NCBI GenBank assembly: GCA_044229975.1
Contig: JBGARZ010000009.1
Coordinates: forward strand, 155,947-219,946
Source of the DNA: Polyangiales bacterium
GTDB lineage: Bacteria; Myxococcota_A; Polyangia; Polyangiales; Ga0077539
Reading direction: 5' to 3'
Length of the DNA: 64,000 nt
The notes under the pieces were generated by a model, which saw nothing but the letters and a program-made list of their open reading frames with translations, had not been told where the DNA came from and searched no databases. Within the stretch, counting starts at the first letter, position 1, and every line of letters begins with the position of its first letter. Position numbers and translations under genes: made by a program. Below are positions 44,401 to 61,186 of the stretch, in pieces.

Positions 44401-45967
44401 ACCGCGCCCCGAAGCGCCGTGCCGGGGCCACGAGCGCCGCCGTCAGCGACTCGTCATCGGGCGTGCGAACGTTGACCATCGAGCGCATGTGCAGCGGCGC
44501 GAGTGCTGCCAGGTCGCCCAGCCGACCGAAGAAGTCCTCGCGCACGACGTAGACCACGCGCAGCGATCCCTTCGCGTCCACGGCCAGCGCCGCCAGTGCC
44601 TCGGCAAAACGCGCGCTCGCCTCGGGTGACGCACCCATGGTGAACAGCTCCTCGCCCTGGTCGACCACCACGACGACGCCGCGGTCTCGCGCCTGCGCCC
44701 ACGCGGCCACCGCCCCCGCCAACGCGACGGGTGTCTCCGGCGCACCCCCGTCGTCGAATCCGTCGAGCGCGCGCCGCAGCGCCGCCAGCAGCGCTCCCCA
44801 TGGGTCTTGCGAAGGGCGGCACAAGACCATCGACGTAAGCGGCCCCGCGGTCCGATACGCCTCGCGCACCGCGAGCCCTCGACGCTCCAGCGCCGGGCCG
44901 ACCCCCGCTTCCAGGAGGGAGGTCTTTCCGCTGCCGCTCGGTCCGAGTACGGTCACGAACGCTGTCTCGCGAATGCAGTGGGTCAGTTGATCCACCAGCT
45001 CCTCGCGCCCGAAGAAGAGCTCGGCGTCTGCGCGATGGAAGGCCTGCAGTCCGCGATAGGGCCGGTGCAGGATGGCGCCGCTCTGCGACTCCGCCGCGAC
45101 ATTGCTGACCGTCAGTCGCTCGTGCAGCCTCGGCCACACGGCGGGCTCAGAGTATTCGTCGCCCGAGGGGAGCGACAGATAGGTACCCGCGTCCTTCTTC
45201 CCGCCTTCGAGGAAGAACACCGCCAGCACCACGCTGTCGGTCGTGACGGCCCGCACCCGGACCACCGGGTCCAGCGTGACCAGCAACCGCCCGGCGGCGT
45301 CGACGAGGACCGCTTGCCCGCTCGGAAGGGCCTGACCCGCCTCCGCCAGGTCGAGGCGTCGCGACTGACCGTTGTAGGCAGTGATGCCTTTCAACCAGCG
45401 CGCCGACCGACTCTTCCCGGTTGGCACCACTAGGCGCACGGGCTCGATGAGGGGCATGAGCGCCGTGAGAACACGCTGCATCGCTGGGACGGTGCGCCCG
45501 GTGAGCGCCAGCACCTGCGCAAGTTCGGCCTTGAAGGGGTGAGCGGTCTCGTTGCGGAGCGCTACCAGGGCGTCGAGGTCATCAACCGCGGTGGAGCGCG
45601 AGTCGTGGTAAAGCCGAACCAGCTCGGGGAACGGATGGGCGATGGGGTCATGCCGCCAGGGACGGAGCAGCTCACGCGCCAGCTCGTGCCAACCTCCGCC
45701 TGTGAGGTGGCTCGATGAGAGGGTTTGCAGCAGCGCGCGCACCCTCGCCGGGTCGCCTCCCGGCCCGGCACCGCGCTCGATGCGAACGGAGAGGGCGAGG
45801 GCGGCCAGGAAGCGTTGCACCGTGAAGAAGACATTGAGCGTAGCCAGTAGGTATTCGTGAGGGTTCTCTGCCCCTTCGGCCCGCCAGAGCGCGTCTGCGA
45901 TGGGCGAGGGCCACGTGGACGTGATGATGTCGACGAGGCCAGTGTCGAGACGAGCGGGGTTGGACAT
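41444..45967 (-). CDS. STAND P-loop NTPase with an N-terminal HEPN-like (Rx4H) domain and about 14 C-terminal WD40 repeats
   Basis: The ATG at 45967 lies 7 nt after AAGGAG. PYRGLQAFHRADAELFFGRE...VLGPSGSGKTSLL is the Walker A region. hhhhD(Q)GEE is the Walker B region. A TM segment is present. About 14 repeats of about 42 aa follow, each of the GH...SPDG...ASxDxTARIWD type. The N-terminal 330 aa are paralogous to the N-terminus of the 51232 protein and include LVALRNETAH. Confidence 0.85.
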   Translation of the reverse strand: MSNPARLDTGLVDIITSTWPSPIADALWRAEGAENPHEYLLATLNVFFTVQRFLAALALSVRIERGAGPGGDPARVRALLQTLSSSHLTGGGWHELARELLRPWRHDPIAHPFPELVRLYHDSRSTAVDDLDALVALRNETAHPFKAELAQVLALTGRTVPAMQRVLTALMPLIEPVRLVVPTGKSRSARWLKGITAYNGQSRRLDLAEAGQALPSGQAVLVDAAGRLLVTLDPVVRVRAVTTDSVVLAVFFLEGGKKDAGTYLSLPSGDEYSEPAVWPRLHERLTVSNVAAESQSGAILHRPYRGLQAFHRADAELFFGREELVDQLTHCIRETAFVTVLGPSGSGKTSLLEAGVGPALERRGLAVREAYRTAGPLTSMVLCRPSQDPWGALLAALRRALDGFDDGGAPETPVALAGAVAAWAQARDRGVVVVVDQGEELFTMGASPEASARFAEALAALAVDAKGSLRVVYVVREDFFGRLGDLAALAPLHMRSMVNVRTPDDESLTAALVAPARRFGARFDEGLVERMVAEAKTGPATLPVLQFTADLLWEDCKENRVLTAEAYKALGGVVGALTRYADKTVGAESGPRATAAREVMLALVSSEGTRVTMPRAELLARVSDRAVAESVIDALVEARLLTSAVDARGAATIELAHEALLTQWKTLQGWRVEDVEGHAQRARVSEATRAWVRSGRREDLLSQGTVLAEIVAWRSRTTPRLTTDEAAFVAGSQAKERRRWRRGVGAIAIVVASLATFAAVAGVQWRKARREREVGKYQLLLARARELSANHAPTEAAVMMVAAAQQERKLDLRGVTAHADVIERDDHPIARVLRGHTAGITAMEFSPDGTRLVTASEDHTARIWDAHTGQLLHSLEGHRDKIVAIAFSSDGTRLATASHDFTARIWDANAGRLLRSLTGFDRVVYDVTFSPDGSRLATASFDYGVRIWETETGQAINSLTHHDLVRGMKFSPDGTRIATGCSDSNARIWDVTTGHLLHLLEGHTDHIQAIAFSPSGALLATTSTDNSMRIWDVSTGHSLRVLMTEMNGADAIVFSPDGRLLATQHGFHAARIWAVDGSALCDLRHDGSVRAIAFSPDGERLATGDDESLVKIWDTSGRLLDILHGHTGPITAVAFSRDGGRIATASEDRTGRIWEAGPQHMLRTFQGHSQSVTAVAFSPNGRWIGTGSEDHTARIWDAATGRPLHSLEGHTWRISSMAFSSDGTRVLTGSWDSTVRVWETGTGRLVHVLEGDGSAITAMALSPDGSRLIVCFSGRDAQIWETDTWRLLRSVQGLQSWVYAIGFSPDGKQVIAGSAAQTAEVWDAATGRPRYSLHGHTDSITAATFSPDGTRLVTGSRDSTVRIWEAGSGRHLQALRGHNGGIAAIAFSPDGTRLVSGSDDLTARVWEVGTWRLLHAFRGHALQVTSVAFSPDGRLLVTGANDHLARLWQTEAPAAAVAPAITDVLRRTNFRICRDSLDVIPLDLPSLSLTDAWAPATACRAVSIDSP

Positions 45968-46123
45968 CTGCACTCCTTGAGAAGCCTGCGTCGCGGAGGG
46001 TAGACGGCTTCGACGACGGATCGCGGTGGATTGCGCCGCATTCACGACCTCGCACCGCAGCTCGTCAGGTTGGCCCCCGAGAGGTGCGTCTACGCATCGA
46101 CCCCCCAATCGGAGGAAAACCCA

Positions 46124-46777
46124 ATGGCCCCGCACCGCTCCAACGTCATCCACCTACACGACCGCCCCGCCGAGAGCGCGGAGCCCACGACCCGCTCCTC
46201 GGCTCCCGCCCCAAGGAAGAACGTGACATGGCTGGGTGTGGGCCCGGTCGCTCTCTCGGCGCCGACCCCTCGCGCGGCCGCGACGCCTCCTCCGGTGCCC
46301 CCGCCCCGGTCGAAAGTCGGGGCGCGTCCCGTGTCGCCTCCGCCCGCGACCACGACAGCCCGTCCTGACCCCAAGGCGGCGCCCCCCCGGGCGGCGCCGC
46401 CGCGCGGCCCGGTGAAGGTTCAGCAGTCACCCACCGGGTCGCTGATCATCACCAGCTCCGACGGGACGGGGCGCATCGTGGTGATCCGACCGCCTCCCAT
46501 CGAGGCGCCGACACTGCGTCGCGAGTCCTCTGTCGAAGCGCCGACGCTGCGCCGCGAGTCCCCCGTCGAGGCGCCGACGCTGCGCCGGGCTCCGTCCAAG
46601 CGCGCGCGCGTCGACCATGGGTTCGGGTCGCCGTTTGCGCCCCTGCCAGACCAGCCCCGTGCGGTCCCGGTCGAGCCGCCCAACCGCGCGATGCTCGCCC
46701 TCCTGGCGGCGATCATCGCCCTCCTGACGACACTCGTCGTGCTCACGATAGTGGTGCTGTTCGGAGGCCTCCGATGA
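46124..46777 (+). CDS. Proline-rich tail-anchored membrane protein carrying 33 bp tandem repeats
   Basis: The ATG at 46124 lies 7 nt after GGAGGA. The protein is Pro/Ala-rich and low-complexity. The C-terminal TM helix reads MLALLAAIIALLTTLVVLTIVVLFGGL. Three repeats of (V/I)EAPTLRRES. Confidence 0.5.
   Translation: MAPHRSNVIHLHDRPAESAEPTTRSSAPAPRKNVTWLGVGPVALSAPTPRAAATPPPVPPPRSKVGARPVSPPPATTTARPDPKAAPPRAAPPRGPVKVQQSPTGSLIITSSDGTGRIVVIRPPPIEAPTLRRESSVEAPTLRRESPVEAPTLRRAPSKRARVDHGFGSPFAPLPDQPRAVPVEPPNRAMLALLAAIIALLTTLVVLTIVVLFGGLR
46497..46595. repeat. Three imperfect 33 bp tandem repeats
   Basis: tcgaggcgccgacactgcgtcgcgagtcctctg, then tcgaagcgccgacgctgcgccgcgagtcccccg, then tcgaggcgccgacgctgcgccgggctccg. 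Confidence 0.75.
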
Positions 46778-46825
46778 CGCCTCGCATGGCCGGGTGGCAA
46801 CGGGCACGGCGCGAAAGGTGATGCC

Positions 46826-47179: not shown

Positions 47180-47192
47180 CCTCCGGGCACCT

Positions 47193-49106
47193 ATGAGATT
47201 CGAGAGGTTCCTACAGTTCGTCGCGAAGCTCGGCACGACCCTCGCCTCGTACGAACGCGCCGAGGTGCTGAGTCAGTGGATGGAGATGCAGCTCGAAGCG
47301 CGGCGCTTCCGGGGCGTCGACGAGGTTCATCGACGACAGATCCTCGCCGCCCTGCAGCGCTGCGGCGCCTCCGACCAGCAACGAACCTACGCGGCCCTGC
47401 TGCTGCCCTCGCCGCACCTGCCGGCGATGTCGACGGGCGAGGCGTGGCTCCTGCTGGCCGGCGCCGAAGGGGGCTTCGTGACCCGCATGCAGGCGCGTCG
47501 GCCGGGTCATCAAGAGGAGGGTCTGACGCTTCTGCCCGACTCCCAGGTGGCGCTGGCAGAGGCTTCCGAGGGGCTTCTTCGGTCCCTCGCGGATCTCGGC
47601 ATGGGAGGACCCAGACAATCATCTATCAGCCTCGGTATCGCTCGGGTTGACGACTTCGTGATGCCGGACCAGGTCACGGGCGCATCCCTGGGCCTGGCCA
47701 CCTGCATCGCCCACCTGTCAGCCTGGACCGAACAGCCGACGCTGGCGCACGTCGTCGGCTCCGCGATCGTCGATGCCCGGGGGAACCTCCACAAGGTGCA
47801 CAACATCCGTGAAAAGATCGAGGCGCTGCGGCTCCGCTGGCCGATGGTCACCCACCTGGTGGTCGCGAGCGATCAGACCGACGCCCCCGAGGACCAGGGC
47901 GTGACGGTGATCCATTGTGATTCCCTCGAACAGGCGTGGGGCCACTTCGGCCTCTCGTTGAACGGAGTTCTCGCTCCGCTTCCCGTCGATGAACTCCGGT
48001 CGAGGATCGACCGCCTTCCATTGGAGCGATCGAACATCGGCGACCGGGAGACTTGGTCGAAGCTCGCCCTCGATGCGCTCAGCTGGTCCGCCGCGATCGA
48101 GATCGTGCTCAGGTCCGCCGACCTGCCTCAACAGGGCGTAGACGATCTGCGAAGTTATCAGTTCAAGGCATTGGGCTTCGCCGCGCTGTTCGCGTTGCAG
48201 GCGGGGGACACGAGGGCCGCGAGCCGACACCTCGACGCGCTCGACGCCATGATCCAGCGAGGCGAGGCGAGGTGGGACGACGTGGAACTCGAGGTCCGCG
48301 TGTCCGTCGCGATCACCCAGGCCGGCGCCGCCATCGCGCGCCAGACCGACGCCCTCGGCCATGCCAGGGAGGCGGTCAAGCTCGCGGAGGGGCTCGGTGG
48401 TCGGCTCCGTCGGCGCCTGCTCGGGAAGGCGATAGGGACTTTGGGGCGGGCCATTCTTCACGGCGGCGATCCAGCGGGCGCCTGCGACACGTTGAGGGAG
48501 GCGGTGCAGTTCCAACGGACCAACGAACCGGAGGAGGAGGCGCGCTCCCTCTGCTACGTCGCGACGGCCGTTCGGATGGCCGGCGACCCTGCGGCGGCCC
48601 TCGTGCAAGTTCTCACGGGGTTGGAGCTCACCGCGAAGCGTTCGGTGTTCCTGTCGTCGAGGACCACGCGCATGTACCTCCACCTCGAGAAGGGTCGTTG
48701 CGAGCTCGCGCTTGGTCGCTGGCCAGACGCGCTGGCCTCGTTTGACGTGGTGATCGGCGAGGGCAGGCGGGGGCCGACCGAGGAAACCGAAGAGAGGCCC
48801 AAGCGGGACCATGACTACCCCAAGCTGGGCGCGCTGCGCGGCCGGGCCAGCGCCCTCTACGAGATGGGAAGCCGGCGAACGGCCCTAGCCTATTGGAAGC
48901 GCTGCCTCATGGTGGCCGAAGCAGAATCGAATGGCACCGCGACCGGGCAGATCGCGGCGCTGGCGTTGGCCGATCTCCGGCTGACCGGCGACGTTGAGTT
49001 GTACCGGGACCTCGACGCGCAGATCGCCAGCGCATGGAACCGGCATTGGGGGATGGACGCCGACGAGGAGCGGATGCGGCAGACGGTACATAGGGCGGTC
49101 TACTGA
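47193..49106 (+). CDS. Protein with a Lon-like (peptidase S16) Ser-Lys protease domain and a C-terminal TPR-like helical repeat region
   Basis: Residues about 157-225 read PDQVTGASLGLATCIAHLSAWTEQPTLAHVVGSAIVDARGNLHKVHNIREKIEALRLRWPMVTHLVVA. This aligns with the E. coli Lon catalytic region [64 protein letters not shown]. Ser (GASLG) and Lys (REKIEA) occupy the catalytic positions. The C-terminal 330 aa are helical repeats. Confidence 0.6.
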   Translation: MRFERFLQFVAKLGTTLASYERAEVLSQWMEMQLEARRFRGVDEVHRRQILAALQRCGASDQQRTYAALLLPSPHLPAMSTGEAWLLLAGAEGGFVTRMQARRPGHQEEGLTLLPDSQVALAEASEGLLRSLADLGMGGPRQSSISLGIARVDDFVMPDQVTGASLGLATCIAHLSAWTEQPTLAHVVGSAIVDARGNLHKVHNIREKIEALRLRWPMVTHLVVASDQTDAPEDQGVTVIHCDSLEQAWGHFGLSLNGVLAPLPVDELRSRIDRLPLERSNIGDRETWSKLALDALSWSAAIEIVLRSADLPQQGVDDLRSYQFKALGFAALFALQAGDTRAASRHLDALDAMIQRGEARWDDVELEVRVSVAITQAGAAIARQTDALGHAREAVKLAEGLGGRLRRRLLGKAIGTLGRAILHGGDPAGACDTLREAVQFQRTNEPEEEARSLCYVATAVRMAGDPAAALVQVLTGLELTAKRSVFLSSRTTRMYLHLEKGRCELALGRWPDALASFDVVIGEGRRGPTEETEERPKRDHDYPKLGALRGRASALYEMGSRRTALAYWKRCLMVAEAESNGTATGQIAALALADLRLTGDVELYRDLDAQIASAWNRHWGMDADEERMRQTVHRAVY

Positions 49107-49653: not shown

Positions 49654-51189
49654 ATGTCACAACTCGATCCCGTCCTCCTCCGCGATACCCGTGCGTACCT
49701 CCTGCTTCGTCTCGGCCGCTGTGCCGAGGTGGATCGCTGCATGGAGCGCCTCGTCAACGCTGCCACCCAGCTGCCCTCGCAGGTCGACCCGGCCGACAGC
49801 CGACAGCGTTGGTTCCACCGCGCTCGTCGGATGTCGGCGGGATTCGGAGAGATCACACGCAAGTTGGTCGACGACCTCCCCTGGGTTCCGCTGCCCGAGG
49901 GGGTCGAGGCTCTTGCTGCGACGCTCCGGCGCGAGCTCACCCCCATTGCCCGTGAGGTGTTGGCGCTGAGGTTTTCACTGGGCTTCGGCGAGCCGTCGAT
50001 CGCCGATCTGATCAACCAGTCGGTCGCGGAGGTCGAGCTCACGTTGGGCGCGGCGATCGGCGTGGCGCGACTCACGATCGGGAGCTTCCACGCGCCGCTC
50101 GGGCTGCTGTTGGGGGCGGTCTTCCGCCTCGACCCGGACCGGGTTCCCTCAATCGGTGACCAGTCGATCGCCGCGGTGGGAGAGGTGATCGACGGTCGAT
50201 ACCGCATAGAGGGCCTGCTCGGTCGCGGCGCCTCGGCGCAGGTCTTCCTGGCCTCCGATCTGCAAATCCGGGGACATCAGGTCGCCCTCAAGCTCATGCG
50301 ACAACCCGTGAGCGATGCGATGGTCGCCGACGCGATACGGCGAGAGTTGGAGATCCTGGCGAGCCTCTGGCATCCGTCGGTGGTGCAGTTGAGGGGGAAC
50401 GGACAACACCGCGGGCGTATCTACCTGACGATGCCGTTTCTCCACGGAGAGACGCTCGCGAATCGGATCGCGCGCCACCCGGCAGGTCTGGGCCGCGCCG
50501 AGGCGCAGCGCATCTTCGTCGCGCTCGCCGGCGCTCTTTCGGCCATCCACGGCGTCGGCGTCCGACACCAGGACCTAAAGCCGCAGAACATCTATCTCGC
50601 GACGATCCCGGGAAGCCTGGAGGAGCATCCGTTGATCCTCGACCTCGGTGTCGCTGCGCGTCACGACGAGCTCGTCGCCGCGGGGACGCCTCCGTACATG
50701 GCACCGGAGGTCGCGCAGGACTTCCTGGCTTCAACCTACGCCGGGGACGCGGCGCGAGTGAGTGAGAAGGCGGACATCTACTCGCTGGCCTCGTGCCTGG
50801 TCGAGGCGCTCGCCCCAGACATCTTCGTTGGACTCGTCGGCGCCGGCGCCTCCCCCGACGCGCTCTTCGAGCGGCGCGCGTCGGGCGTGCTCCCGCGCTG
50901 GACCGACCACCGCCTGTCCGACCTGGCGTCGTCGCTGAGCCGCTGGATGGCGGCCGCGCCTGAGGCTCGGCCGGACGCGGTCGTGTTCGCGCGGGAGCTG
51001 TCCGTCCTCACGGCGCACCCGGGGCGACGCGCGGCCCGGAGGTGGTTCGCGCGGCGGGTGCGCGGCCCGTCCGCAGCGGTCGCAGGCGCGGTAGGGGATT
51101 GGTGGGGCCGCGTGGTTCCAGGCCCTCTGGGGGCTTCGCCTGGTAGCCATCCGTCGACGCCTGAGGCGTCGACGTCAACAGTTGTGTAG
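49654..51189 (+). CDS. Ser/Thr protein kinase with an N-terminal sigma-70 region-4-like HTH
   Basis: N-terminus TPIAREVLALRFSLGFGEPSIADLINQSVAEVELTLGAA resembles sigma region 4. The kinase domain has GRGASAQVF, VALK, HQDLKPQN, DLG, APE and DIYSLA. Confidence 0.85.
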   Translation: MSQLDPVLLRDTRAYLLLRLGRCAEVDRCMERLVNAATQLPSQVDPADSRQRWFHRARRMSAGFGEITRKLVDDLPWVPLPEGVEALAATLRRELTPIAREVLALRFSLGFGEPSIADLINQSVAEVELTLGAAIGVARLTIGSFHAPLGLLLGAVFRLDPDRVPSIGDQSIAAVGEVIDGRYRIEGLLGRGASAQVFLASDLQIRGHQVALKLMRQPVSDAMVADAIRRELEILASLWHPSVVQLRGNGQHRGRIYLTMPFLHGETLANRIARHPAGLGRAEAQRIFVALAGALSAIHGVGVRHQDLKPQNIYLATIPGSLEEHPLILDLGVAARHDELVAAGTPPYMAPEVAQDFLASTYAGDAARVSEKADIYSLASCLVEALAPDIFVGLVGAGASPDALFERRASGVLPRWTDHRLSDLASSLSRWMAAAPEARPDAVVFARELSVLTAHPGRRAARRWFARRVRGPSAAVAGAVGDWWGRVVPGPLGASPGSHPSTPEASTSTVV

Positions 51190-51231: not shown

Positions 51232-54200
51232 GTGATCGATACTGACGTGAGCTCGTTCGAGGCGGTGTTGAGACGAGCGCGGGCGGAGTTTCCGGTGCCG
51301 ATCGCCGATGCGGTGGTCGAATACGAGGGCACACGAGATCCACACGAGCGGATGCTCAAGCTGGTGGAGTTGTTCCGGGCGGCGCTTCGAATGGTGGCCA
51401 CGTGCGCGCTCGCAGCAAGGCTGAGCGTGGGACCTGGGCCGAAGGGGGAAGACGAGCGTCGAGCCGTTGCACTCCTTGAGGAGCTACGACGCCGATCGTT
51501 GACAGACGGCCAGTGGATCGAGCTGACGCGAGAGCTTTTGAGGCCTTGGCGGCTCGCGGCATTGGACCATCCGCTGCCTGAGCTGGTGCACGGATTCGAT
51601 GCGCGGGGTGGTCGCATGGCGCTGTGCTTCGAGACGTTGGTAGCGCTCCGCAATGAGGTACTGCACGGTCCGCGACTCAAGGGCCCCCCACGCCCCATGG
51701 AGGAGATCGTGGGACACCTCATACCCGCACTGGAGGAGAGCCTCGTACTGCTCGCGCCTGTCTGGGCGCGGGTACGGCTGGTCGTGGTGCTCGCGCAACG
51801 TAGCGCGAGCGGTGTACCGCTCGCATGGGAGCTCGTTGGGCAGACGCCGCCGCGCGGCCGTTGGCGCACGATCACGATTCCAGGGACCGAGAGCGTCGAG
51901 GCAGGCGCCGCGATACTGGTCAATGGATCGGGCGCGATGGTTCTCGCGATGAGCGTGGCGCTGGTGGTGCGGCGACCCAGCCCTGGAGCGGTAGAGGAGA
52001 CCTTCTTCCTGGACGGTGGCGAGAAGGGCGAGGCGCGGTACATGGCGCTGCCATCGCCCGCGGTGCTGATGGTGGCCGGTGCATGGGCACAGTTCCGACT
52101 GTCGATGGTGCCAGAGCCTGAAGTGAGCGCGAGCGATAGGGCAGTTCCTGATCGGCCGTACCGGGGACTCGAGAGCTTCGGACCGGAACATGCTGTGCTC
52201 TTCGTGGGCCGGGAGACCCTGATTGAGGCCCTGGCCAATCGCGTTCGGCGGTATGGCCTTGTAACCGTCACCGGGCCGAGCGGCGCTGGGAAGACGTCAC
52301 TGCTTCGGGCAGGCATTGGACCCGAGTTGGCACGTCGCAATCGTCAGCCTGCGCGCGGCGCCCGGTCCCGCAATGGCGATGTCGGGTTGGATTACCATAT
52401 GGTATATGTGCGCCCTGGGGTGAACCCTTGGGGAAGCCTACTGCGTGCGTTGGAACGCGAGTTGACAGACTGGAGAAGTCCGGACGCGGCAGTGCACGAA
52501 GCCGCGACAGGGCTGGCCGCGTCGCTTCGCACGTACGCGCGCGAGCGACGGTGCCGGGTGGTGCTGGCGCTCGACCAGGCGGAGGAGTTGTTCACGTTGA
52601 GAGCGGACATGGAACAGCGCGCGATGTGGGGCGCGCTGCTGATGGGCCTCGGCGAGGACGACGAAGGGCCGACGCGGGTCGTGCTGTCGCTACGTGAGGA
52701 CTGGATCTCGCTGATGGCAACGCTGCCGCACGTAGGTGCGCTGGTGGGGCGTCAGGTCGAGGTGGTGAACCGACCCGACCGGGAGGCGCTAATCCGGGTC
52801 CTGGTAGAACCAGCAGAGCGCTTCGGAGCGCGCTACGAGGAGGGCCTGGTCGACACGATGGTCGACGAGGTGGGAGAGACTCCAGCCGCGCTGGCCTTGC
52901 TACAGTTCACGGCCGATCGATTGTGGGAGATCGGGCATGACGATCGACGGTTGACGCGAGAGGAGTACAAGGCCATCGGCGGAGTCAAGGGCTCGCTGGG
53001 ACGACACGCCGATGAAGAGCTGGCAAGGATGACGACGAGTGAACAGCGCACGGCGCGGGAGCTATTGATTGGAATGGTGACAGCGGCGTGGACGCGATCT
53101 GCGCGGCTGGAGGAGGAGTTGATCGAGGCGGTATCGCGGAAGGACGCGCAGGCGGTTCTGGAGAAGTTGACGGCGGCGCGGCTGGTGACGCGGCAGGACA
53201 ACCCAGCGACGGTGGAGATCGTGCACGAGGCGCTGCTCACGCACTGGCCGCGAATGCAGGCGTGGCGGGCGGAGGACGAGGAGGGAGTGGTCTGGCGGGC
53301 GCGACTGCGGGAGGCCGTGCGGGACTGGAATCGAAGCGGGAATGCGAAGGCGTGGTTGTGGGGCGAAGATGTGTTGGCTGGCTTGGCGCTCTGGGAGGGT
53401 GAGCGGGCCCAGATTTACGGAGCGGACGAGCGCCGATTCATCGAAGCGAGCTGGCGGAAGGTGCGCCAGGCGAACCAACGGCTCTGGATGATGGTCGCCG
53501 GCGTGATGGCGGTGCTTGCGGGAATCAGCGCGTTCGCCACAGTGCAGTGGCGGAAGGCGCGGAGCCAGGGAAAAGTAGCAAGTCAGCGAGAGGGGGAGGC
53601 GCGTCGAGCAGAGAGGGGGATGGAGTACCGCTCGTTGCTCGCGAGTGCCCGAAGGCTGGAACTGGACGGGAACAATGACAAGGCGCTCGCCATGTGGCTG
53701 GCGGTGCTGGATCGAGAGACAGCATTGGAAGTCAACGCCCACGACGGACTGGAACGGCTGCTCCTGTGGCGTGACCTTGCCAACAACGGCAATGGCACAT
53801 ACTTGCTCCAAGGGCACCAAGGTGAGGTGTCCTCGACGACGTTCTCGCCCGACGGTCGGCGCGTCGTCACCGCGTCCAGCGATCAGACTGCCCGGGTGTG
53901 GGAGGTCGAGACCGGGCGATTGCTGGCTACCCTCCAAGGACATAGAGACATTGTGCACTCGGCGACGTTCTCGCCCGATGGACGGCGCGTCGTCACCGCG
54001 TCCAGTGATCAGACCGCCCGGGTGTGGGAGGTCGAGACCGGGCGATTGCTGGCTATCCTCCAAGGGCATAGAGACATTGTGCGCTCGGCGACGTTTTCGC
54101 CCGACGGACAGCACGTCGTCACTGCGTCCGGCGATCGAACCGCCCGGGTGTGGGAGGCTGGGAGTGGACGCCTGCTTACCACCCTCCAGGGGCATCAAGG

Positions 54201-56073
54201 CTCCGTTGTGTCAGCGGTGTTCTCGCCCGACAGCCAGCGCATCGTCTCCGCGTCAACGGATCGCACGGCGAGGATATGGGACGCTGAGAACGGGCGATTG
54301 CTCACCACCCTCCAAGGACACCAGGCAGAGGTATCCGCCGCAACATTCTCGCCCAACGGGCAAAGGGTTGCTACCGCATCTCGCGATCGCACGGCGAGGA
54401 TATGGGACGTCGAAAACGGACGACTGATCGCCACTCTCCAGGGGCACCAAGCCAGGGTATCCTCTGCAGCGTTCTCACCCAACGGACGACGCCTCGTGAC
54501 CGCTTCTGGCGATCAAACCGCAGGGGTGTGGGAAGTTGAGAGCGGACGATTGCTCACAGCTTTTCAAGGGCACCAAGGGCCGGTATTCTCTGCGACGTTC
54601 TCGTCCGATGGACAACGAGTCGCAACCGCTTCTGACGATCAAACCGCGCGGGTGTGGGAGGTCGAGAGCGGGCGATTGCTTGCCACCCTTAGGGGGCACC
54701 AAGGATCGGTATTCTCCGCAACATTCTCGCCCGAGGGACGACGCGTCGCAACCGCTTCCCGCGATCAAACCGCACGGGTGTGGGAGGTCGAGAGCGGGCG
54801 ATTGCTCACGACGCTCCAAGGGCATCCACAGAGAATGAGTTTTGCGCACTTTTCGCCCGATGGCCAACGAATCGCCGCCGTGTATGGCGATCTTACGGCG
54901 CGGGTCTGGGAAGCTGGCACCGGCCAATTGCTCTATGCTCTCCAAGGGAATCAAGGCGAGATGCTCTCCGCGACGTTCTCGCGGAATAGTCGGTGGATCG
55001 TTACCACCTCTCGGGACACCATCGCACGGGTGTGGGAGGCCAGAAGCGGACAGCTACTTGCTACTCTTCGAGGAGGTACAGAGATCATACACTCGGCGGC
55101 GTTCTCGCCCGACGGTCGATGGATCGTCACCACGTCGAGCGATTGTGCGGCGAGAGTCTGGGAAACCGAGAGCGGTCAACTGGTCGCTACACTCCAAGGA
55201 CACCTGAACTGGGTCAGTTCCGCGGCGTTTTCGCCAGACGGCCAACGGGTTGTCACCGCCTCAATCGATCGCACGACAAGGATATGGAATGCCATGGACG
55301 GTGTTCAGATTGCCGTGCTTGAAGGGCATCAAGATGGGGTGACATCCGCGGCGTATTCGCCAGACGGTCGGAGGGTCGTGACTGCGTCAAACGATCACAC
55401 GGCAAGGGTTTGGGGGGTCGAAGGCGGGCGCCTCCCGGTCACTATGCGGGGACATGTGGGACCAGTGCTCTCCGCAATGTTCTCACCCACTGGGCGAACC
55501 ATCGCTACCCAGGGCCTCAATGACACCGTACGAGTGTGGGACGCTGACAGTGGACAGACGCTCACTACACTTGCTGCATCAGCCAGTGAGATAAGCTCCT
55601 CCTCGTTCTCGACGGATGGGCAGCGAATCGTCACGGTGTCTGCCGAAGACGGCGCTGCAGTTGTCTGGGGAACCAGAGGTGGGCGTCGACTGTTTACGTT
55701 CCAAAGAGGTCCTGGGAGAGTGAACTCCGCCGCGTTTTCGCCAGATGGACGGCGGGTCGTCACCGCATCTTCGGATGGGACTGCGAATGTGTGGGATGCC
55801 GTGGTTCTCACCCCTCCCTTGCTTGCTCGCTGGTTCTTCAGTCGAACCAACTTTCGTGTCTGCCGCAACTCCCTTGACGTCATCGCCGTCGACGTCCCCT
55901 CTCTCCCCAGGATCCGCAACAGTCCCTGGGCGACCGATGAGGAGTGCCGCCGCACCGCGCTCTCTCCCAGTGTGCACACCCCCACCGCTCCGCCTGCTAC
56001 CGATGCAGGTCTACTCCCTGATGGAGCACTCTCTCGCCCGTCGCGCAGCACCACCCCGCCCGCCGTCCGTTGA
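51232..56073 (+). CDS. STAND P-loop NTPase with an N-terminal HEPN-like (Rx4H) domain and 14 C-terminal WD40 repeats; paralogue of the 41444..45967 protein
   Basis: GTG start 10 nt after GGAGA. PYRGLESFGPEHAVLFVGRE...VTGPSGAGKTSLL is the Walker A region. LDQAEE is the Walker B region. A TM segment is present. Fourteen repeats of 42 aa follow, each of the LQGHxxxVxSAxFSPDGxRVVTASxDxTARVWE type. The N-terminus contains LVALRNEVLH. Confidence 0.85.
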   Translation: MIDTDVSSFEAVLRRARAEFPVPIADAVVEYEGTRDPHERMLKLVELFRAALRMVATCALAARLSVGPGPKGEDERRAVALLEELRRRSLTDGQWIELTRELLRPWRLAALDHPLPELVHGFDARGGRMALCFETLVALRNEVLHGPRLKGPPRPMEEIVGHLIPALEESLVLLAPVWARVRLVVVLAQRSASGVPLAWELVGQTPPRGRWRTITIPGTESVEAGAAILVNGSGAMVLAMSVALVVRRPSPGAVEETFFLDGGEKGEARYMALPSPAVLMVAGAWAQFRLSMVPEPEVSASDRAVPDRPYRGLESFGPEHAVLFVGRETLIEALANRVRRYGLVTVTGPSGAGKTSLLRAGIGPELARRNRQPARGARSRNGDVGLDYHMVYVRPGVNPWGSLLRALERELTDWRSPDAAVHEAATGLAASLRTYARERRCRVVLALDQAEELFTLRADMEQRAMWGALLMGLGEDDEGPTRVVLSLREDWISLMATLPHVGALVGRQVEVVNRPDREALIRVLVEPAERFGARYEEGLVDTMVDEVGETPAALALLQFTADRLWEIGHDDRRLTREEYKAIGGVKGSLGRHADEELARMTTSEQRTARELLIGMVTAAWTRSARLEEELIEAVSRKDAQAVLEKLTAARLVTRQDNPATVEIVHEALLTHWPRMQAWRAEDEEGVVWRARLREAVRDWNRSGNAKAWLWGEDVLAGLALWEGERAQIYGADERRFIEASWRKVRQANQRLWMMVAGVMAVLAGISAFATVQWRKARSQGKVASQREGEARRAERGMEYRSLLASARRLELDGNNDKALAMWLAVLDRETALEVNAHDGLERLLLWRDLANNGNGTYLLQGHQGEVSSTTFSPDGRRVVTASSDQTARVWEVETGRLLATLQGHRDIVHSATFSPDGRRVVTASSDQTARVWEVETGRLLAILQGHRDIVRSATFSPDGQHVVTASGDRTARVWEAGSGRLLTTLQGHQGSVVSAVFSPDSQRIVSASTDRTARIWDAENGRLLTTLQGHQAEVSAATFSPNGQRVATASRDRTARIWDVENGRLIATLQGHQARVSSAAFSPNGRRLVTASGDQTAGVWEVESGRLLTAFQGHQGPVFSATFSSDGQRVATASDDQTARVWEVESGRLLATLRGHQGSVFSATFSPEGRRVATASRDQTARVWEVESGRLLTTLQGHPQRMSFAHFSPDGQRIAAVYGDLTARVWEAGTGQLLYALQGNQGEMLSATFSRNSRWIVTTSRDTIARVWEARSGQLLATLRGGTEIIHSAAFSPDGRWIVTTSSDCAARVWETESGQLVATLQGHLNWVSSAAFSPDGQRVVTASIDRTTRIWNAMDGVQIAVLEGHQDGVTSAAYSPDGRRVVTASNDHTARVWGVEGGRLPVTMRGHVGPVLSAMFSPTGRTIATQGLNDTVRVWDADSGQTLTTLAASASEISSSSFSTDGQRIVTVSAEDGAAVVWGTRGGRRLFTFQRGPGRVNSAAFSPDGRRVVTASSDGTANVWDAVVLTPPLLARWFFSRTNFRVCRNSLDVIAVDVPSLPRIRNSPWATDEECRRTALSPSVHTPTAPPATDAGLLPDGALSRPSRSTTPPAVR
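53808..54183. repeat. Three near-identical 126 bp tandem WD40 repeat units inside the 51232 gene
   Basis: Units at 53808, 53932 and 54058 are more than 95% identical over their last ~95 nt. They diverge mainly in a roughly 20 nt patch encoding HQGEVSST, HRDIVHSA and HRDIVRSA. Confidence 0.8.
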
Positions 56074-56131: not shown

Positions 56132-57850
56132 ATGAGGGAACCGATGCCACGCCCATCCGCTGCTCCCCCGGCGTCAACCTTCCTCGCACAGCGCTGCGTC
56201 GCCGGGCGCTACGACGTCGTCGGCGCCCTCGACTCGGCGTCGAACCGGGGACGCCTCTTCACCTTCGCTGGCCGAGATCGCGAGACTGGTGACGGCGTGC
56301 TGATCTGTCAGCTTAAGCCGCTCTTCGCGCGCGACCCCAACGTGCGACGCGAACTGGCCGAAGGCGTGGCGAAGTCTGCGCTGCTCTCGCACCCTTCGAT
56401 TCGCGAGGTGCTCGCCTCGGAAATCGGGGACGGCACGGCGTTCTACGTCACCCGCTCTCTCGACGGGCAGACGGTGTCGCGGCGTCTGCGAGGCGGCGCG
56501 ATTTTCACGGAGCGGGAAGTGGTGCTCACCGCCAAGTCCCTGCTGGGAGCCCTGGTGCACGCTCACGAGCGCGGTGTGGTCTTCGGTGGCATCAAGCCAT
56601 CGAACGTCCTGCTGCGTCCCTCTCGCTGCGAAGGAATGCTGGTGGACCTGCCCCGTCCGCCCCTGGACGTGGCCGGCCTCACCCACGCCGCAGCGTATCT
56701 CGAGATCCCGCAAGATTGTGCGCCGGAGGTCCTCGCGACAGGCCGCTTCGACGCGCGTGCGGACCTCTACGGAGTCGGCGTGGTGATGTGGCAGATGGCG
56801 ACCGGTACCCTGGCATTTCGAGACCATCCGAACCTCGCCGACGTCCTGTCACTCGTGATCGAGGAGGGACTCCCCCCAGCCGAATCGGTGAACCCTGACC
56901 TCCATCCCGCTTTGGCCCGGTTGATCGCCCGGGCGACGGCACGCGATCCCGAGGAGCGCTTCGTCTCGGCAGCGGCCATGTTCACTGCGCTCGGCAAGCT
57001 CCCCACGCGAAACGCACCTCTGGTGTCGCCGCAGCGCCTCGACGCGCTCGTGCGCTCCTCGTTTCCGCAGCCCATCGCGCGCACCTATGCTTCCATCGAC
57101 GAGCGGGCAGGGGAGGACGAGCGCCTCGGGCGTCTCATCGACACCACTCACGTCGCCGTCCAGCTCGTCGCGTCACTGGTCATCATGGACCGACACCGCC
57201 AGGGTCTCCCCCCGCTACCCCTCACGAAGACGCCCGTCCCCTTCGCCCGACCCGCGCTCGGGCACTGGGTGTCGGTCGTGCGGGCGAACGCACTCGACCC
57301 CACCGGCGTGCTCCCGCAATTGCACCGCGCGCTGCTGGAAGACGACCAGCACGCGCACCTCCTACGGACGGCGATGGATCGTCTCGTCGAGGTGCGCAAC
57401 CAGTGCCGACACGGGAGTTCCCTGCCCGCCGCCGGATCGCGGCGTCTGCGGACCGATGCGAAGCCGCACCTGCTGACGATGCTCCGCCAGCTGCTCCTCC
57501 TGCGCGACCACACCCTCGTCGTCGTGGACGACATCGACTTTGCCGACGAGGGCTTCGAGTATGTGGTCCGCCCGCTGCGCGGCATGGTCGCGTCGCAACT
57601 GCAGGTCCGAGTCCGTGCGGCCGAGCGCTTCAAGCAGCACCACCTCTGCTTCGCGGATCACGACTTGGTGCCGCGAGTCGACCTGTACCCCCTCGTTCGC
57701 TGGAAGGACTGCCCGCGTTGCGACACGCAGGAGGTCTTCTTCTACGAGTCGGCGGGGGACGAGCGCGTGCACTACGTCTCCTACGACCACGGTCACTCCA
57801 TGAGCGACCCCGACATCCTGCCCGCTTTCCGGACGCTCGGGCTGCTCTGA
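56132..57850 (+). CDS. Pseudokinase (catalytic HRD replaced by FGG) with a C-terminal HEPN-like (Rx4H) domain; RNase L/Ire1-like architecture
   Basis: Kinase-fold landmarks are retained (VLICQLK, HPSIREV, GIKPSNVLL, CAPEVL, DLYGVGVVMWQMATG). The Gly-loop is degenerate. HRD is replaced by VFGGIKPSN and DFG by VDLPRP. The C-terminal 250 aa are homologous to the STAND N-terminal domains and include LVEVRNQCRH. Confidence 0.7.
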   Translation: MREPMPRPSAAPPASTFLAQRCVAGRYDVVGALDSASNRGRLFTFAGRDRETGDGVLICQLKPLFARDPNVRRELAEGVAKSALLSHPSIREVLASEIGDGTAFYVTRSLDGQTVSRRLRGGAIFTEREVVLTAKSLLGALVHAHERGVVFGGIKPSNVLLRPSRCEGMLVDLPRPPLDVAGLTHAAAYLEIPQDCAPEVLATGRFDARADLYGVGVVMWQMATGTLAFRDHPNLADVLSLVIEEGLPPAESVNPDLHPALARLIARATARDPEERFVSAAAMFTALGKLPTRNAPLVSPQRLDALVRSSFPQPIARTYASIDERAGEDERLGRLIDTTHVAVQLVASLVIMDRHRQGLPPLPLTKTPVPFARPALGHWVSVVRANALDPTGVLPQLHRALLEDDQHAHLLRTAMDRLVEVRNQCRHGSSLPAAGSRRLRTDAKPHLLTMLRQLLLLRDHTLVVVDDIDFADEGFEYVVRPLRGMVASQLQVRVRAAERFKQHHLCFADHDLVPRVDLYPLVRWKDCPRCDTQEVFFYESAGDERVHYVSYDHGHSMSDPDILPAFRTLGLL

Positions 57851-57960
57851 TCCAACGGCCAGGATTCGCTTCGAGGTCGACGCCCGACGTCAGGTTGGGC
57901 CGGTCATCGACGGTCTATCTGGCAGGGGCCGACAACGGGCTCGGCCAGATTGGAGTATCG

Positions 57961-58566
57961 ATGAACAAGATTCAGTACATCATCGCCCTCGTCCTCTCTC
58001 TCGGTGCGAGCGTGGTGCTCCCCACGACCACGTACGCCCAGGAGGCGCCAACCGACGAGGGGAGTCCGCAGGAGAACAGCGACGGTGTCTCCGAGGCCCT
58101 CGACCGCTTCGAATCGCGCCTGCGTGAGCTCGCGACCGAAGAGAACGCGCCCGAGGTCATCGCACGACTCGACGACGTCCCAACCGACACCGTGGTCGAT
58201 GAAGATCGATTCCGTGCCCTGATCAGGGAGTACACGGTGCGCTCTCTCCTGGCCTCGACCTCCGCCGCGACGGTCGGTGAGGACAACGTTGTGCCCATCC
58301 AGCAGACGCTCCAGCGCGCCGCCGCCGCGCACGGTGACCGCTTGGTGCGGGCGCTCACCAGGCTCCACGCGCAGCACGGTGACGCCTGCTACGAGCAGGC
58401 GCGCACCCTGATCGAAGACGCCGCAGATCCCGACGTCGAGGTCTCCAGCCTCGGCCAGCAGGTGATCGCGCTGTCCGAGGCGCTCCGGTCGGAGGATGAC
58501 CCGGACACCTCGGAGCGGGTGCTCCTCGAAGGGGTCCGGCTGTTGCGGAACGCGTCCGGGCGCTGA
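57961..58566 (+). CDS. Small secreted acidic protein (hypothetical)
   Basis: The ATG at 57961 follows GGAGT. Signal peptide MNKIQYIIALVLSLGASVVLPTTTYAQE. It is the C-terminal part of ORF 57403..58566. Confidence 0.5.
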   Translation: MNKIQYIIALVLSLGASVVLPTTTYAQEAPTDEGSPQENSDGVSEALDRFESRLRELATEENAPEVIARLDDVPTDTVVDEDRFRALIREYTVRSLLASTSAATVGEDNVVPIQQTLQRAAAAHGDRLVRALTRLHAQHGDACYEQARTLIEDAADPDVEVSSLGQQVIALSEALRSEDDPDTSERVLLEGVRLLRNASGR

Positions 58567-58846
58567 GACGCCCCCAATCCTCCAACGCGTCTGCAGTTCG
58601 TCTCGCGCCAGAAGGGGTTTCGACACGAACGGCAGGCGGATTGCGGGCAAGCAGAGACACTGGTACCTCTGTCGCGCGACGGCGGGGCTTAGCGCTCGGC
58701 GGACTCGGTACGAAACGGCAATCACCTGCACCACCGCCAACCACCATCCGCCAGCGGGCTGACGCGACAGTGTGTGGATGGGTCGTCACCGATCGACACG
58801 ATCCACGCGTCCCCGGCCGTTCTTTCCCCGACAGAAAGACTCTCGC

Positions 58847-59755
58847 ATGCAGCCCTTTGAGCTCATCAGACCAACCACGGGCAACTCTCTCCTGCCACCG
58901 GACAAGCCGATCGTACTATCGGCAGAGGACCCGATTCGCGGTGACCCTGCGTGCGTCCCCTATGTGCTCGATGCGTCCTTGGCCGTCGCGATCAACACGG
59001 CCATCGCCGTCGACCAGCCGTTGCTTGTCACAGGCGAGCCAGGCTGTGGCAAGACGACCCTCGCCTGGGCGATCGCCAGCCAACTCGGCACCACGGTCGA
59101 GGCCTTCCACGTGAAGTCCACTTCCACGGCGCGTGACCTGCTCTACAGCATGGACAATCTGCGCCGATTCCACGACGCGAACTCGAAGGTGGAACTCGCG
59201 GGTGAGCCGCGACACTACCTTCGGCTCGAAGCCCTCGGGCGGGCGTTTACCGCGGACGTCACCCGAGTCGTGCTCATCGACGAGATCGACAAGGCACCGC
59301 GCGATCTCCCCAACGACCTCCTCCGCGAGCTCGACGAGAAGGCCTTCACCATCGTGGAGACGGGAGAGGTGGTGCGGCAGCGGGTGCCTCAAGTGATCGT
59401 GATCACCAGCAACCGCGATCGGCAGCTGTCGGATGCGTTTCTGCGCCGCTGCGTCTACGCGCACATTCCCTTCCCGAGCCCGGAAGTCCTGGTCAAGGTC
59501 ATCGCGGCGCATGCGGGAGCACGGGGCGTGGGCGTCGATCTCGTCGACGCGGCCGTGCGGCGTTTTGGCGAGCTGCGCGACAGCGGGCTGGAAAAGAAGC
59601 CCGCGACGAGCGAACTCCTCGCGTGGGTGCTGGTGCTGCATCGACGAGGAACCACCGCGGCGTCGATCGAAGAGTGCCCGCTCGGTGCCCTGCCCGGACT
59701 CGAGCTGTTGGTGAAAACACCGGAGGACCTTCACCGGATCGTCGCGCAGGGGTGA
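58847..59755 (+). CDS. MoxR-family AAA+ ATPase
   Basis: Walker A reads LLVTGEPGCGKTTLAWA. Walker B reads VVLIDEIDKAPRDLPNDLLRELDE. Sensor motifs VIVITSNR and LSDAFLRRCVYAHIPFP are present. It is the internal ATG of ORF 58772..59755. Confidence 0.85.
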   Translation: MQPFELIRPTTGNSLLPPDKPIVLSAEDPIRGDPACVPYVLDASLAVAINTAIAVDQPLLVTGEPGCGKTTLAWAIASQLGTTVEAFHVKSTSTARDLLYSMDNLRRFHDANSKVELAGEPRHYLRLEALGRAFTADVTRVVLIDEIDKAPRDLPNDLLRELDEKAFTIVETGEVVRQRVPQVIVITSNRDRQLSDAFLRRCVYAHIPFPSPEVLVKVIAAHAGARGVGVDLVDAAVRRFGELRDSGLEKKPATSELLAWVLVLHRRGTTAASIEECPLGALPGLELLVKTPEDLHRIVAQG

Positions 59756-59785
59756 CCTGAGCGGAGGACAGGGAGAGAAGGTTCG

Positions 59786-61186
59786 TTGAGCGCTCAACCA
59801 ATAGACGACCGCGAGGAGTTGCGGCGCTGGGTCACCAAGGTCGCGATCGCCCGCGCGGGCGGCGACCGGGACAACGTTGCGCGCTGTGTCTCGGCGCTAG
59901 CGGAGGGCGTCCTTCGTCTCGCGTTGAAACGACAGGTCCCTGAGCCCATCTACGACCGCGCGTTGCAGGCCGTGCTCAAGGGGAAACAACGCCGGCCGAC
60001 GCTGGGCGACTATGTGCAAGTCTATGCGATGTGCCAGCCAGACCCTTCCTGTCGCCTGCCGACGGTCGATCTGGGCCTCATCCGGCGGCTCCCGCTGGTA
60101 CGAAATGCGGGACAGCACTTTGGTCTATCCGAGCCGGAGAACCTGACCTCACCCGTCGAGGTCTACGTGGAGGCGATCCGGCCGCTGGCCCTGGCCATCG
60201 AGGTGTTCGACGACGAAGAACTCACGGCCCTGGAGCACGGCCCGACCGATCTCCCCGTCCGCCTCACGCTCGATCGGGTGCCACAGCGCGAAGAGCTTTC
60301 CGGGTTCCTTCGGGATGCGAGGGGGCGCGACCGGCGGCTGATCGCTCTTTGGCTCGAAGGCGAGACGCGACAGGGCGTTCGTACGTACTACGAACGAATC
60401 TGTCATGAACTCGCGGAACAGCGGATCACTATCGAGCAACAGATCGAAGGCGAGGATGGCAGCGCCGCCGGCCGTGGCGTCCGCTGGGCGAGGGGTCTGG
60501 CTGATCCGGCCTCGCGCCTGACGTCGCTGATCGAGTCCCTGATGCGTTCCCTCACGACAAGATTGCCGGGAGAGTCAAGGCTCCCTCCTCCGCCAGTCGA
60601 ACGGCTCTCCCTGCATGGAAAGCCGAACGCGCGTTGGGACGAGTGGCTGGATGGGCTGGCGGAGGTGTTGTGGAAGAAGGCTCGTCTCCGCCGGATGCTG
60701 GTGCGCCACGTCGTCGGTCCAGACGAGCGAATCCATCGTTCCGACGAGGCTGTCGTTGGCCGTTATCTGGAGCTCGTGTGGGGTCGCGTCGCGGTGCTCA
60801 TGCGCACGTCGAGGGGCTCGGACATCCGTGTCGTGCTCTCCTTCGAAGTGGAGCGTAGTCGTCTCATTCTGGGAGGGCCGCGTGGCCCGTGGCGCAGCGT
60901 GCTGCGAGCGCTCAGGCAGTGGTGGGAGCGGCGATCCCTGGCAGCGATGCGGGCGCGGCTCGAATCAACGCGCCTTGGCGAAGGCCCGTTGGCGGTAGCG
61001 CTGTCGCCACTCGCGGGCGTACCTGTCGATGCCATCACGAAGGAACTGCGAGATCGCGGCTTCCCCCGAAGTCGACTCGCCGAGACGGCGGCGGATCTCT
61101 GGTACGAGACCGACTGTGGGCGCTACGAGGAGTTGATCGAAAAGATCCCTGAGCGCCTGGACCGTGACGAGGACGAGGGGCGGTGA
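59786..61186 (+). CDS. Hypothetical protein (466 aa) with an N-terminal HEPN-like (Rx4H) domain
   Basis: The N-terminal 150 aa align with the STAND N-terminal domains and include LPLVRNAGQH. It lies between the MoxR ATPase gene and the VWA protein gene. The C-terminal part is of unknown function. Confidence 0.5.
   Translation: MSAQPIDDREELRRWVTKVAIARAGGDRDNVARCVSALAEGVLRLALKRQVPEPIYDRALQAVLKGKQRRPTLGDYVQVYAMCQPDPSCRLPTVDLGLIRRLPLVRNAGQHFGLSEPENLTSPVEVYVEAIRPLALAIEVFDDEELTALEHGPTDLPVRLTLDRVPQREELSGFLRDARGRDRRLIALWLEGETRQGVRTYYERICHELAEQRITIEQQIEGEDGSAAGRGVRWARGLADPASRLTSLIESLMRSLTTRLPGESRLPPPPVERLSLHGKPNARWDEWLDGLAEVLWKKARLRRMLVRHVVGPDERIHRSDEAVVGRYLELVWGRVAVLMRTSRGSDIRVVLSFEVERSRLILGGPRGPWRSVLRALRQWWERRSLAAMRARLESTRLGEGPLAVALSPLAGVPVDAITKELRDRGFPRSRLAETAADLWYETDCGRYEELIEKIPERLDRDEDEGR

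Follow-up and report, generated by a model that had tools for sequence, protein, structure and literature searches.

HEPN effectors on STAND NTPases are already known (PMC3710099, Table 1; PMC8195603). The superfamily of HEPN ribonuclease (RNase) domains includes the HEPN-STAND-TPR fusions listed in a 2013 survey (PMC3710099) and the DUF4145-type HEPN domain of RAZR (PMC13017515). The composite site of HEPN RNases forms only in a dimer (PMC3710099, PMC13017515), and the KEN domains are eukaryotic HEPN domains in circularly permuted form (PMC3710099). In this study, we analyzed a stretch of 64,000 nucleotides from a Polyangiales bacterium (contig JBGARZ010000009.1, positions 155,947 to 219,946; hereafter the window) and found that two STAND NTPases, STAND1 and STAND2, and a predicted pseudokinase encoded near them carry three copies (D1, D2, and D3) of one HEPN-like module. 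Because the theme of HEPN domains on STAND proteins is known, we regard the module as a new family within a known kind rather than a new principle. The copies, their parts, and the remainders of the proteins that carry them are as follows.

45104..45967, minus strand: module copy D1, the N-terminal 288 amino acids (aa) of STAND1 (from BLASTP, the family hidden Markov model [HMM], and an AlphaFold2 model with pLDDT 94.5)
45443-45967, minus strand: helical HEPN-like half of D1, aa 1-175; the beta-rich half is aa 178-275
45539-45559, minus strand: D1 motif LRNETAH, with R138-N139-x3-H143 at 45539-45556
51232..52110, plus strand: module copy D2, the N-terminal ~293 aa of STAND2 (from BLASTP and family profiles)
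51646-51666, plus strand: D2 motif LRNEVLH
56987..57850, plus strand: module copy D3, the C-terminal ~287 aa of the pseudokinase protein (from BLASTP and family profiles)
57392-57412, plus strand: D3 motif VRNQCRH
41444..45103, minus strand: remainder of STAND1, with nSTAND1 at aa 303-698, one transmembrane-like helix, and WD40 propellers
52111..56073, plus strand: remainder of STAND2, with nSTAND1 at aa 309-705, one transmembrane-like helix, and WD40 propellers
56132..56986, plus strand: kinase-like domain of the 572-aa pseudokinase protein; the database copy begins at 56144

D1 and D2 share 36% identity over 261 aa (BLASTP E 2e-40), D3 is ~25% identical to each of them over 155-167 aa, and in a multiple alignment the three are collinear over ~280 aa, through the helical part and the beta-rich part. 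Non-circular profiles, which were built from database relatives with the window sequences left out and scored with the database size set to 1.8e9, agree: the STAND-type profile matches D3 end to end at E 1e-24, and the pseudokinase-type profile matches D1 at E 3e-10 and D2 at E 2e-8. The family HMM gives E values of 1e-80, 7e-79, and 7e-51 for D1, D2, and D3, and when run on all six window frames it finds exactly three module copies. These comparisons establish that D1, D2, and D3 are homologous, three paralogues of one two-part module of ~280 aa.

The initial annotation of this DNA had proposed a single HEPN-like domain of ~150 aa with an invariant [LV]RNxxxH motif in four proteins, the fourth being a 466-aa protein encoded downstream of a MoxR-like ATPase gene. 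The four motifs (LRNETAH, LRNEVLH, VRNQCRH, and VRNAGQH) do lie where it placed them, and the homology among D1 to D3 is stronger than it had claimed (E 1e-24 to 2e-8), but the 466-aa protein does not belong with them (E ~1e8). That protein also lacks the first three alignment blocks that had been described as common to all four, and the shared unit proved to be ~280 aa, helical plus beta-rich, and not ~150 aa. The HEPN-like reading stands for D1 to D3, on the basis of fold, motif site, and sub-threshold HEPN-clan matches, but not as one domain in four proteins. The pattern [LVIM]RN...H has 8 matches in a six-frame scan of the whole window, four of which are the reported instances. Elsewhere in the window, VDLRNHMQHV (11685-11705, plus strand) is the only further in-frame match that falls in an open reading frame (ORF; 11580-12635) with coding-like base composition.

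The structure of D1 was predicted by AlphaFold2 from a 39-sequence alignment, with a pLDDT of 94.5 and a pTM of 0.93. The model contains helices at 9-18, 21-31, 36-65, 74-85, 90-104, 114-121, 127-141, and 149-169, followed by nine strands (178-275) and a last helix. The Arg and Asn of the motif, R138 and N139, are at the end of helix 127-141, and its His, H143, is at the start of the loop that precedes helix 149-169, which is the location given for Rx4-6H (PMC3710099, section 7); inserts between helices 2 and 3 are typical of HEPN domains (PMC3710099, section 7), and D1 fits this description. As modeled, D1 carries its motif where the HEPN superfamily does, at a spacing of Rx4H or Rx6H. Structure prediction, a check that the initial annotation had put forward, yielded a confident model of D1 with HEPN structures such as 1wwp and 8xdj among its neighbors. 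The structural neighbors, with their scores, are the Roquin-1 N-terminal region comprising HEPN plus ROQ (4txa; 11.5), a Roquin-1 ROQ construct (4qik; 10.7), TTHA0636 (1wwp; 8.4), a HEPN toxin (8xdj; 8.3), HI0074 (1jog; 8.1), AF0298 (2hsb; 7.1), SO_3166 (5yep; 6.9), a second HEPN toxin (7ae2; 6.8), Csm6 (6tug; 6.8), and YutE (1ylm; 6.5).

Pfam points the same way below its thresholds. When the 39 family members were compared with Pfam singly, HEPN_RiboL-PSP was the only recurrent family (3 members, best E 0.0022), its best match scoring 18 bits against a 28-bit cut-off, and single weak matches to HEPN_Cthe2314, Abi_C, and HEPN_Swt1 were also obtained. Among ten members scanned singly, five located matches to RiboL-PSP, Cthe2314, and Swt1 cover the motif and its flanking helices; the Abi_C match is not one of these. 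The comparison with HEPN-clan models, which the initial annotation had named as a check, gave sub-threshold matches of relatives over the motif and none at threshold.

Several results weigh against a HEPN assignment or against catalysis by the module. No HEPN-clan Pfam model exceeds its gathering score on the window copies or the 39 relatives, and a Foldseek search of the PDB with the D1 model gave nothing below E 0.04. The acidic helix-2 residue of many HEPN families was not identified in the module, and in Roquin, the best structural neighbor, the HEPN region serves as a scaffold and is not known to be catalytic. Sequence and profile searches of the PDB found no match for the module, and the Foldseek matches of its beta half to tandem Tudor domains were weak and non-significant. 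We consider it likely that D1 to D3 have a HEPN-type fold and motif.

The family to which these copies belong is large. No Pfam-A, NCBIfam, or PADLOC model recognizes the module, and the window copies match no Pfam family at E ≤ 10. Word-indexed homologue searches with D1 returned nothing or the query alone, and relatives surfaced only in an exhaustive profile search, in which the HMM retrieved 1,253 proteins at E ≤ 1e-3 and 357 at E ≤ 1e-10 from 1.84 billion cluster representatives. The best 150 of the 1,253 matches were surveyed for architecture, and three main forms were found: the module N-terminal on nSTAND1-WD40 proteins of ~1,500 aa; an N-terminal kinase followed by the module and nSTAND1-WD40, in proteins of ~1,750-1,850 aa; and the module C-terminal on kinase-like proteins of ~560 aa. 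Rarer forms are tandem arrays and fusions to HEAT-like repeats, to a methyltransferase, or to a dCache sensor that replaces WD40. Apparent stand-alone module proteins of ~300 aa were counted with the STAND N-terminal class and were rejected as a form of their own, being for the most part STAND genes that are truncated or split: P0045 and P0049 run into the beginning of nSTAND1 and stop there, and in P0126 an nSTAND1 ORF directly follows the module ORF. In P0099 (1412 aa) the family profile matches five stretches, of which two pass the full-length filter, and P0139 (1423 aa) has the order module, active kinase, transmembrane segment, module; in multi-module chains such as these, some repeats have an intact motif and others a degenerate one.

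Conservation of the motif, counted in 138 aligned module copies, differs sharply by architecture. The STAND N-terminal class has Arg138 in 67/70 and His143 in 65/70 copies, and in the pseudokinase C-terminal class Arg138, Asn139, and His143 are each present in 7/7. The kinase-module-STAND fusions keep Arg138 in 17/56 copies, with His143 practically absent. Conservation of the two residues in orthologues, another check named in the initial annotation, is accordingly largely borne out beyond the kinase-STAND fusions (Arg in 74/77, His in 72/77), but the motif is not invariant: most STAND copies read MRK(S/A)ETVAHG, i.e., Rx6H, so that the window STANDs are in an RNxxxH minority, and it is lost in the large fusion clade. 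Eight structural-looking residues (P20, P22, A24, W93, G194, L232, P234, and F251) are invariant in all three classes.

The state of the motif can be set beside that of the kinase. In the kinase domain of the 572-aa window protein, motif scans show HRD changed to FGG (VVFGGIKPSN) and DFG to DLP, and the protein is a predicted pseudokinase. All six C-terminal-class proteins with a recognizable kinase motif, the window protein included, have HRD changed to FG[GN] and keep RNxxxH; DFG reads [DG][LF]P in five of them and went undetected in the sixth. The other two proteins of the class, P0114, which has a methyltransferase-like N terminus, and P0144, showed no kinase motif. Conversely, every fusion with a recognizable kinase motif retains D[FL]G and the HRD catalytic Asp (one has HCD) and has an eroded module motif, with P0098 as the single exception. 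Judged from these residues, the motif state is reciprocal to the kinase state, which is how one would expect a catalytic or function-specific pair to behave if it can be dispensed with once another enzyme domain is the effector. One point against catalysis also lies in the alignment: the Arg/His pair is missing from about 40% of the copies, so the fold has a function independent of it.

The beta half of D3 (~57700-57830, plus strand) contains CPRC ... YDHGH, that is, CxxC followed by H..GH. This arrangement recurs in the relatives P0059, P0060, P0068, P0089, P0144, and P0114 and is absent from the STAND-class copies; it may be a zinc or other metal site of the pseudokinase-class beta half.

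We examined six contexts of relatives, and DNA was at hand for five related loci, two of which are copies of the same gene. One pseudokinase-module relative adjoins a TPR-guanylate cyclase gene, a second adjoins an ARPP-1 gene, and a third lies among TIR_2, WD40, and ParE-toxin genes. A module-nSTAND1-dCache protein adjoins vWA, trypsin, and FGE-sulfatase genes, in another context an nSTAND1 ORF comes straight after a module ORF, and one long nSTAND1-WD40 relative has no annotated neighbors. Each of the five related loci with DNA has one module copy. The three copies in the window are thus a local feature and not part of a conserved system design, which also weakens the idea that the module is a homotypic adaptor.

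How might such a module act? On the nSTAND1-WD40 proteins, which also have a transmembrane-like helix, it would occupy the N-terminal effector position of an NLR-like receptor. Ligand binding by the WD40 sensor or C-terminal repeats would lead to nucleoside triphosphate-driven oligomerization of the NTPase, the N-terminal HEPN domains would then pair into a composite two-motif site, and RNA cleavage would result in growth arrest or abortive infection. Since HEPN RNases require a dimer, induced proximity would be a natural switch for a HEPN domain borne on a STAND protein. In the pseudokinase protein, the dead kinase fold may control HEPN pairing, as in RNase L, and one could speculate that the neighboring 511-aa kinase feeds into this control. 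RNase activity, oligomerization-driven activation, and a defense role are what we infer for the module, and the explanation as a whole, an effector module with RNase activity on STANDs and pseudokinase, strikes us as reasonably probable. A more ambitious version is tentative and, in its entirety, rather doubtful. In it, the HEPN family would be the dedicated RNase effector of membrane-anchored nSTAND1-WD40 receptors, and its capture by a pseudokinase would have produced a counterpart of RNase L and Ire1 in bacteria, with kinase and HEPN activity strictly partitioned and never both present; the three window copies could then form mixed HEPN pairs, and the pseudokinase protein could be recruited to, or regulate, activated STAND oligomers.

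The module could instead be a non-catalytic regulatory or adaptor domain on a HEPN-like scaffold, which would serve homotypic pairing of STAND and pseudokinase or couple an upstream domain to the NTPase, with Arg and His used for binding or structure. The presence of three copies on different proteins within 16 kb resembles the EAD-coupling principle (PMC7159879), and 56 of the 138 copies sit between an active kinase and the NTPase, where Arg/His are lost and the structural residues are all kept. Set against this, Arg and His are retained in at least 72/77 copies that do not belong to the fusion clade, whether the spacing is Rx4H or Rx6H, and motif loss coincides with an intact kinase, a pattern that active and inactive forms of an effector would be expected to show. 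Moreover, no EAD or Death-like Pfam model matches the module, and the multi-copy co-location is not conserved in the five related loci. We consider this adaptor function unlikely, and outright membership in the EAD or Death-like adaptors was rejected, the module being 280 aa long with a conserved Arg/His pair and no Pfam family at E ≤ 10. A ligand-sensing domain, in which the beta half would be part of a binding site for a nucleotide or small molecule that gates the NTPase or pseudokinase, seems very improbable to us. The beta half is without an assigned function, the CxxC...H..GH residues of the pseudokinase class could bind metal, and the partners are varied (dCache in place of WD40, HEAT-like repeats, a methyltransferase), all of which would suit a sensor; but the N terminus of STAND proteins is typically the effector, with the C-terminal WD40 or dCache already serving as sensor (PMC8195603, PMC13581612), and no similarity to known ligand-binding folds was found. 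For the effector reading, the reciprocal pattern of kinase and HEPN residues is a clean, testable prediction of the effector domain in each architecture.

The 466-aa protein has to be considered separately, with the following features.

59786..60241, plus strand: N-terminal ~150 aa of the 466-aa protein, a putative minimal HEPN-like helical domain
60098-60118, plus strand: motif VRNAGQH, with R106-N107-x3-H111

By sequence this protein is not a fourth copy of the module and not the paralogue it had been taken for. Its N terminus gives a best BLASTP E of 0.05 over 30 aa against D1 to D3 and scores E ~1e8 with all family profiles, and hhalign of the family against the protein gives a probability of 0.2%. 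The [LVIM]RN...H pattern has a chance expectation of ~0.015 in a protein of this length against the six-frame background, which makes VRNAGQH suggestive but not evidence of paralogy. Residues 1-175 were modeled by single-sequence AlphaFold2. In the usable model, R106-H111 stand at a helix end, followed by a loop and then the last long helix. The structures listed for this model are AF0298 (7.9), Csm6 (7.8), the sacsin HEPN domain (7.5), AbiA (7.4), Roquin (7.0 and 6.9), and the C-terminal domain of LinB (6.6), together with more Csm6 chains, TT1696, Csx1-Crn2, HI0074, HepS, and ST0689. We think that the N terminus is probably an independent, minimal HEPN-like domain. Weighing against that are the quality of the prediction, in which one of five models is usable (pLDDT 72, the others 35-55) and the motif segment lies below 50, and the failure to find any homologue in any searchable collection, genome and metagenome-contig scans included. 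Word-indexed searches with the full protein and with its N terminus returned nothing or the query alone, and no Pfam, NCBIfam, or PADLOC model matches. Chance occurrence of VRNAGQH in an unrelated helical domain would account for these negative results, for the lack of sequence or profile similarity to the module, and for the poor models, including the low confidence at the motif in the best of them; it fits less well with the low expectation and with the position of the motif after a helix and before the last long helix, and we hold it to be possible but the less convincing account.

The remaining genes were called on the basis of third-position guanine-plus-cytosine (GC) content and Pfam, in a window that is GC-rich throughout (0.61-0.73) and gave no match in an Rfam scan. 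The gene map of the locus is given below; the 511-aa kinase, the MoxR-like ATPase, and the 1321-aa protein are listed for context only.

41444-45967, minus strand: STAND1 gene, nSTAND1 plus WD40 (third-position GC, Pfam)
47193-49106, plus strand: TPR protein (third-position GC, Pfam)
49654-51189, plus strand: Ser/Thr kinase, 511 aa, directly 5' of STAND2 (Pfam Pkinase E 5.8e-29, motif scan)
51232-56073, plus strand: STAND2 gene, nSTAND1 plus WD40 (third-position GC, Pfam)
56132-57850, plus strand: kinase-like protein, 572 aa (Pfam Pkinase E 2.7e-14 for the kinase-like domain)
~57961-58566, plus strand: small ORF, ~200 aa, between the pseudokinase gene and the MoxR-like gene
58772-59755, plus strand: MoxR-like AAA+ ATPase (AAA_5), directly 5' of the 466-aa gene (Pfam AAA_5 E 4e-14)
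59786-61186, plus strand: gene of the 466-aa protein
61183-64000, plus strand: beginning of a 1321-aa FGE-sulfatase protein, which continues past the window end

Both STANDs pass the gathering score of nSTAND1 (PF20703) by a wide margin (314 and 310 bits against a cut-off of 27.1), with Pfam E values of 2.8e-93 for nSTAND1 and 7e-144 for WD40 in STAND1 and 3.4e-92 for nSTAND1 in STAND2. A hydropathy scan places a single, strongly hydrophobic transmembrane-like helix with basic residues on both flanks between the nSTAND1 NTPase and WD40 of each protein, at aa ~742-765 of STAND1 (window 43672-43743, minus strand) and aa ~750-773 of STAND2 (53479-53550, plus strand). Given this position, the sensor and the HEPN/NTPase effector part may face opposite sides of a membrane. 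The WD40 array of STAND2 (~53800-55900, plus strand) contains near-identical 42-aa tandem units, with one long stretch present twice. Third-position GC is 0.71-0.72 in both STAND genes compared with 0.82-0.95 in their neighbors, and GC dips at 42-44 kb and 54-56 kb fall within STAND1 (WD40 region 41444-43600, minus strand) and STAND2. The lower GC and the repeats suggest either recent repeat turnover or a foreign origin. The 511-aa kinase keeps VALK, HQD, DLG, and APE in a motif scan and is therefore probably active. The small ORF has a signal-peptide-like N terminus (MNKIQYIIALVLSLGASVVLPTTTYAQE) and an acidic low-complexity body and gave no family match.

Downstream, the MoxR-like ATPase matches the NCBIfam MadB family AAA-type ATPase at E 6e-24 (85 bits against a cut-off of 475) and is weakly similar to IteA, an anti-phage ATPase; its true start may be the ATG at 58847. 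A genome scan with it returned only a RuvB locus (L002), which was set aside as irrelevant. The gene at 61183 overlaps the stop codon of the 466-aa gene and is full length in L001 (1908-5873, 1321 aa); its product has three transmembrane-like segments, a Sel1-like stretch, an FGE-sulfatase domain (E 2.7e-45), and a weak TonB_C match. The MoxR-vWA-VMAP systems consist of a MoxR AAA+ ATPase, a vWA protein, and a VMAP with a VMAP-C domain (PMC7159879), and the initial annotation had associated the 466-aa protein with a MoxR/VWA pair. The vWA and VMAP-C/M models have no match in the 466-aa or the 1321-aa protein. Because no vWA domain was detected, this operon is not a classical MoxR-vWA-VMAP system, and assignment to that ternary system was rejected, the MoxR-like AAA_5 being present and vWA and VMAP-C not found.

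Three things appear to be new here: the family itself, which is large, lies outside the domain libraries searched, and combines HEPN with a fixed beta domain; the near-exclusive link of the module to nSTAND1; and a bacterial pseudokinase-HEPN architecture with reciprocal inactivation, of which a full-text literature search found no description. If the module is an active RNase, an effector function would be assigned to more than 1,000 clusters (50% identity) of nSTAND1-WD40 proteins whose N termini are now unannotated. RNase L and Ire1 would also have a prokaryotic parallel in the pseudokinase-HEPN design, and with it would come a simple bacterial system for learning how a HEPN nuclease is gated by a kinase fold. 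The module alignment could seed a Pfam entry in the HEPN clan and improve the annotation of defense islands.

The module resembles the HEPN superfamily (PMC3710099) in forming an all-alpha up-down bundle whose helices 2 and 3 are separated by an insert, in having Rx4-6H where helix 3 ends, the Arg being followed by a polar residue, in the apparent existence of active and inactive versions, as judged by motif, and in its fusion to STAND NTPases in conflict-system neighborhoods. It differs in matching no HEPN-clan Pfam model at threshold, in the additional N-terminal helices of its bundle, in the conserved beta-rich domain of ~100 aa that always follows the bundle, and in its specific partner, nSTAND1 with a transmembrane-like helix and WD40. 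We know of no HEPN family described with such a beta-rich domain after the bundle, although no search was made on this point. Roquin is an RNA-binding protein of eukaryotes with an unrelated architecture; its ROQ domain is inserted into the HEPN domain and divides it, and this HEPN domain is not known to be catalytic. 4txa and 4qik are 10-11% identical to the module. EADs and Death-like adaptors (PMC7159879, PMC8195603) likewise occur on STAND N termini and on separate neighboring proteins. However, EADs are small and have no catalytic-type motifs, unlike the 280-aa module with its conserved Arg/His pair, which matches no EAD model and is not found in several copies in the related loci.

The closest parallel to the pseudokinase protein is offered by RNase L and Ire1, in which a HEPN-type domain likewise comes directly after a kinase-fold domain; the kinase of the bacterial C-terminal class, like that of RNase L, has lost catalytic residues, and the HEPN motif is kept. 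A sequence search of the PDB gave no match to KEN or RNase L chains. The bacterial protein differs in having neither ankyrin nor lumenal sensor domains, in the beta-rich domain after its HEPN domain, and in a helix order that, as modeled, looks canonical, with no permutation evident. By analogy of architecture, the pseudokinase-module protein is most likely the product of an independent fusion, an analogue of RNase L and Ire1 and not a member of their family.

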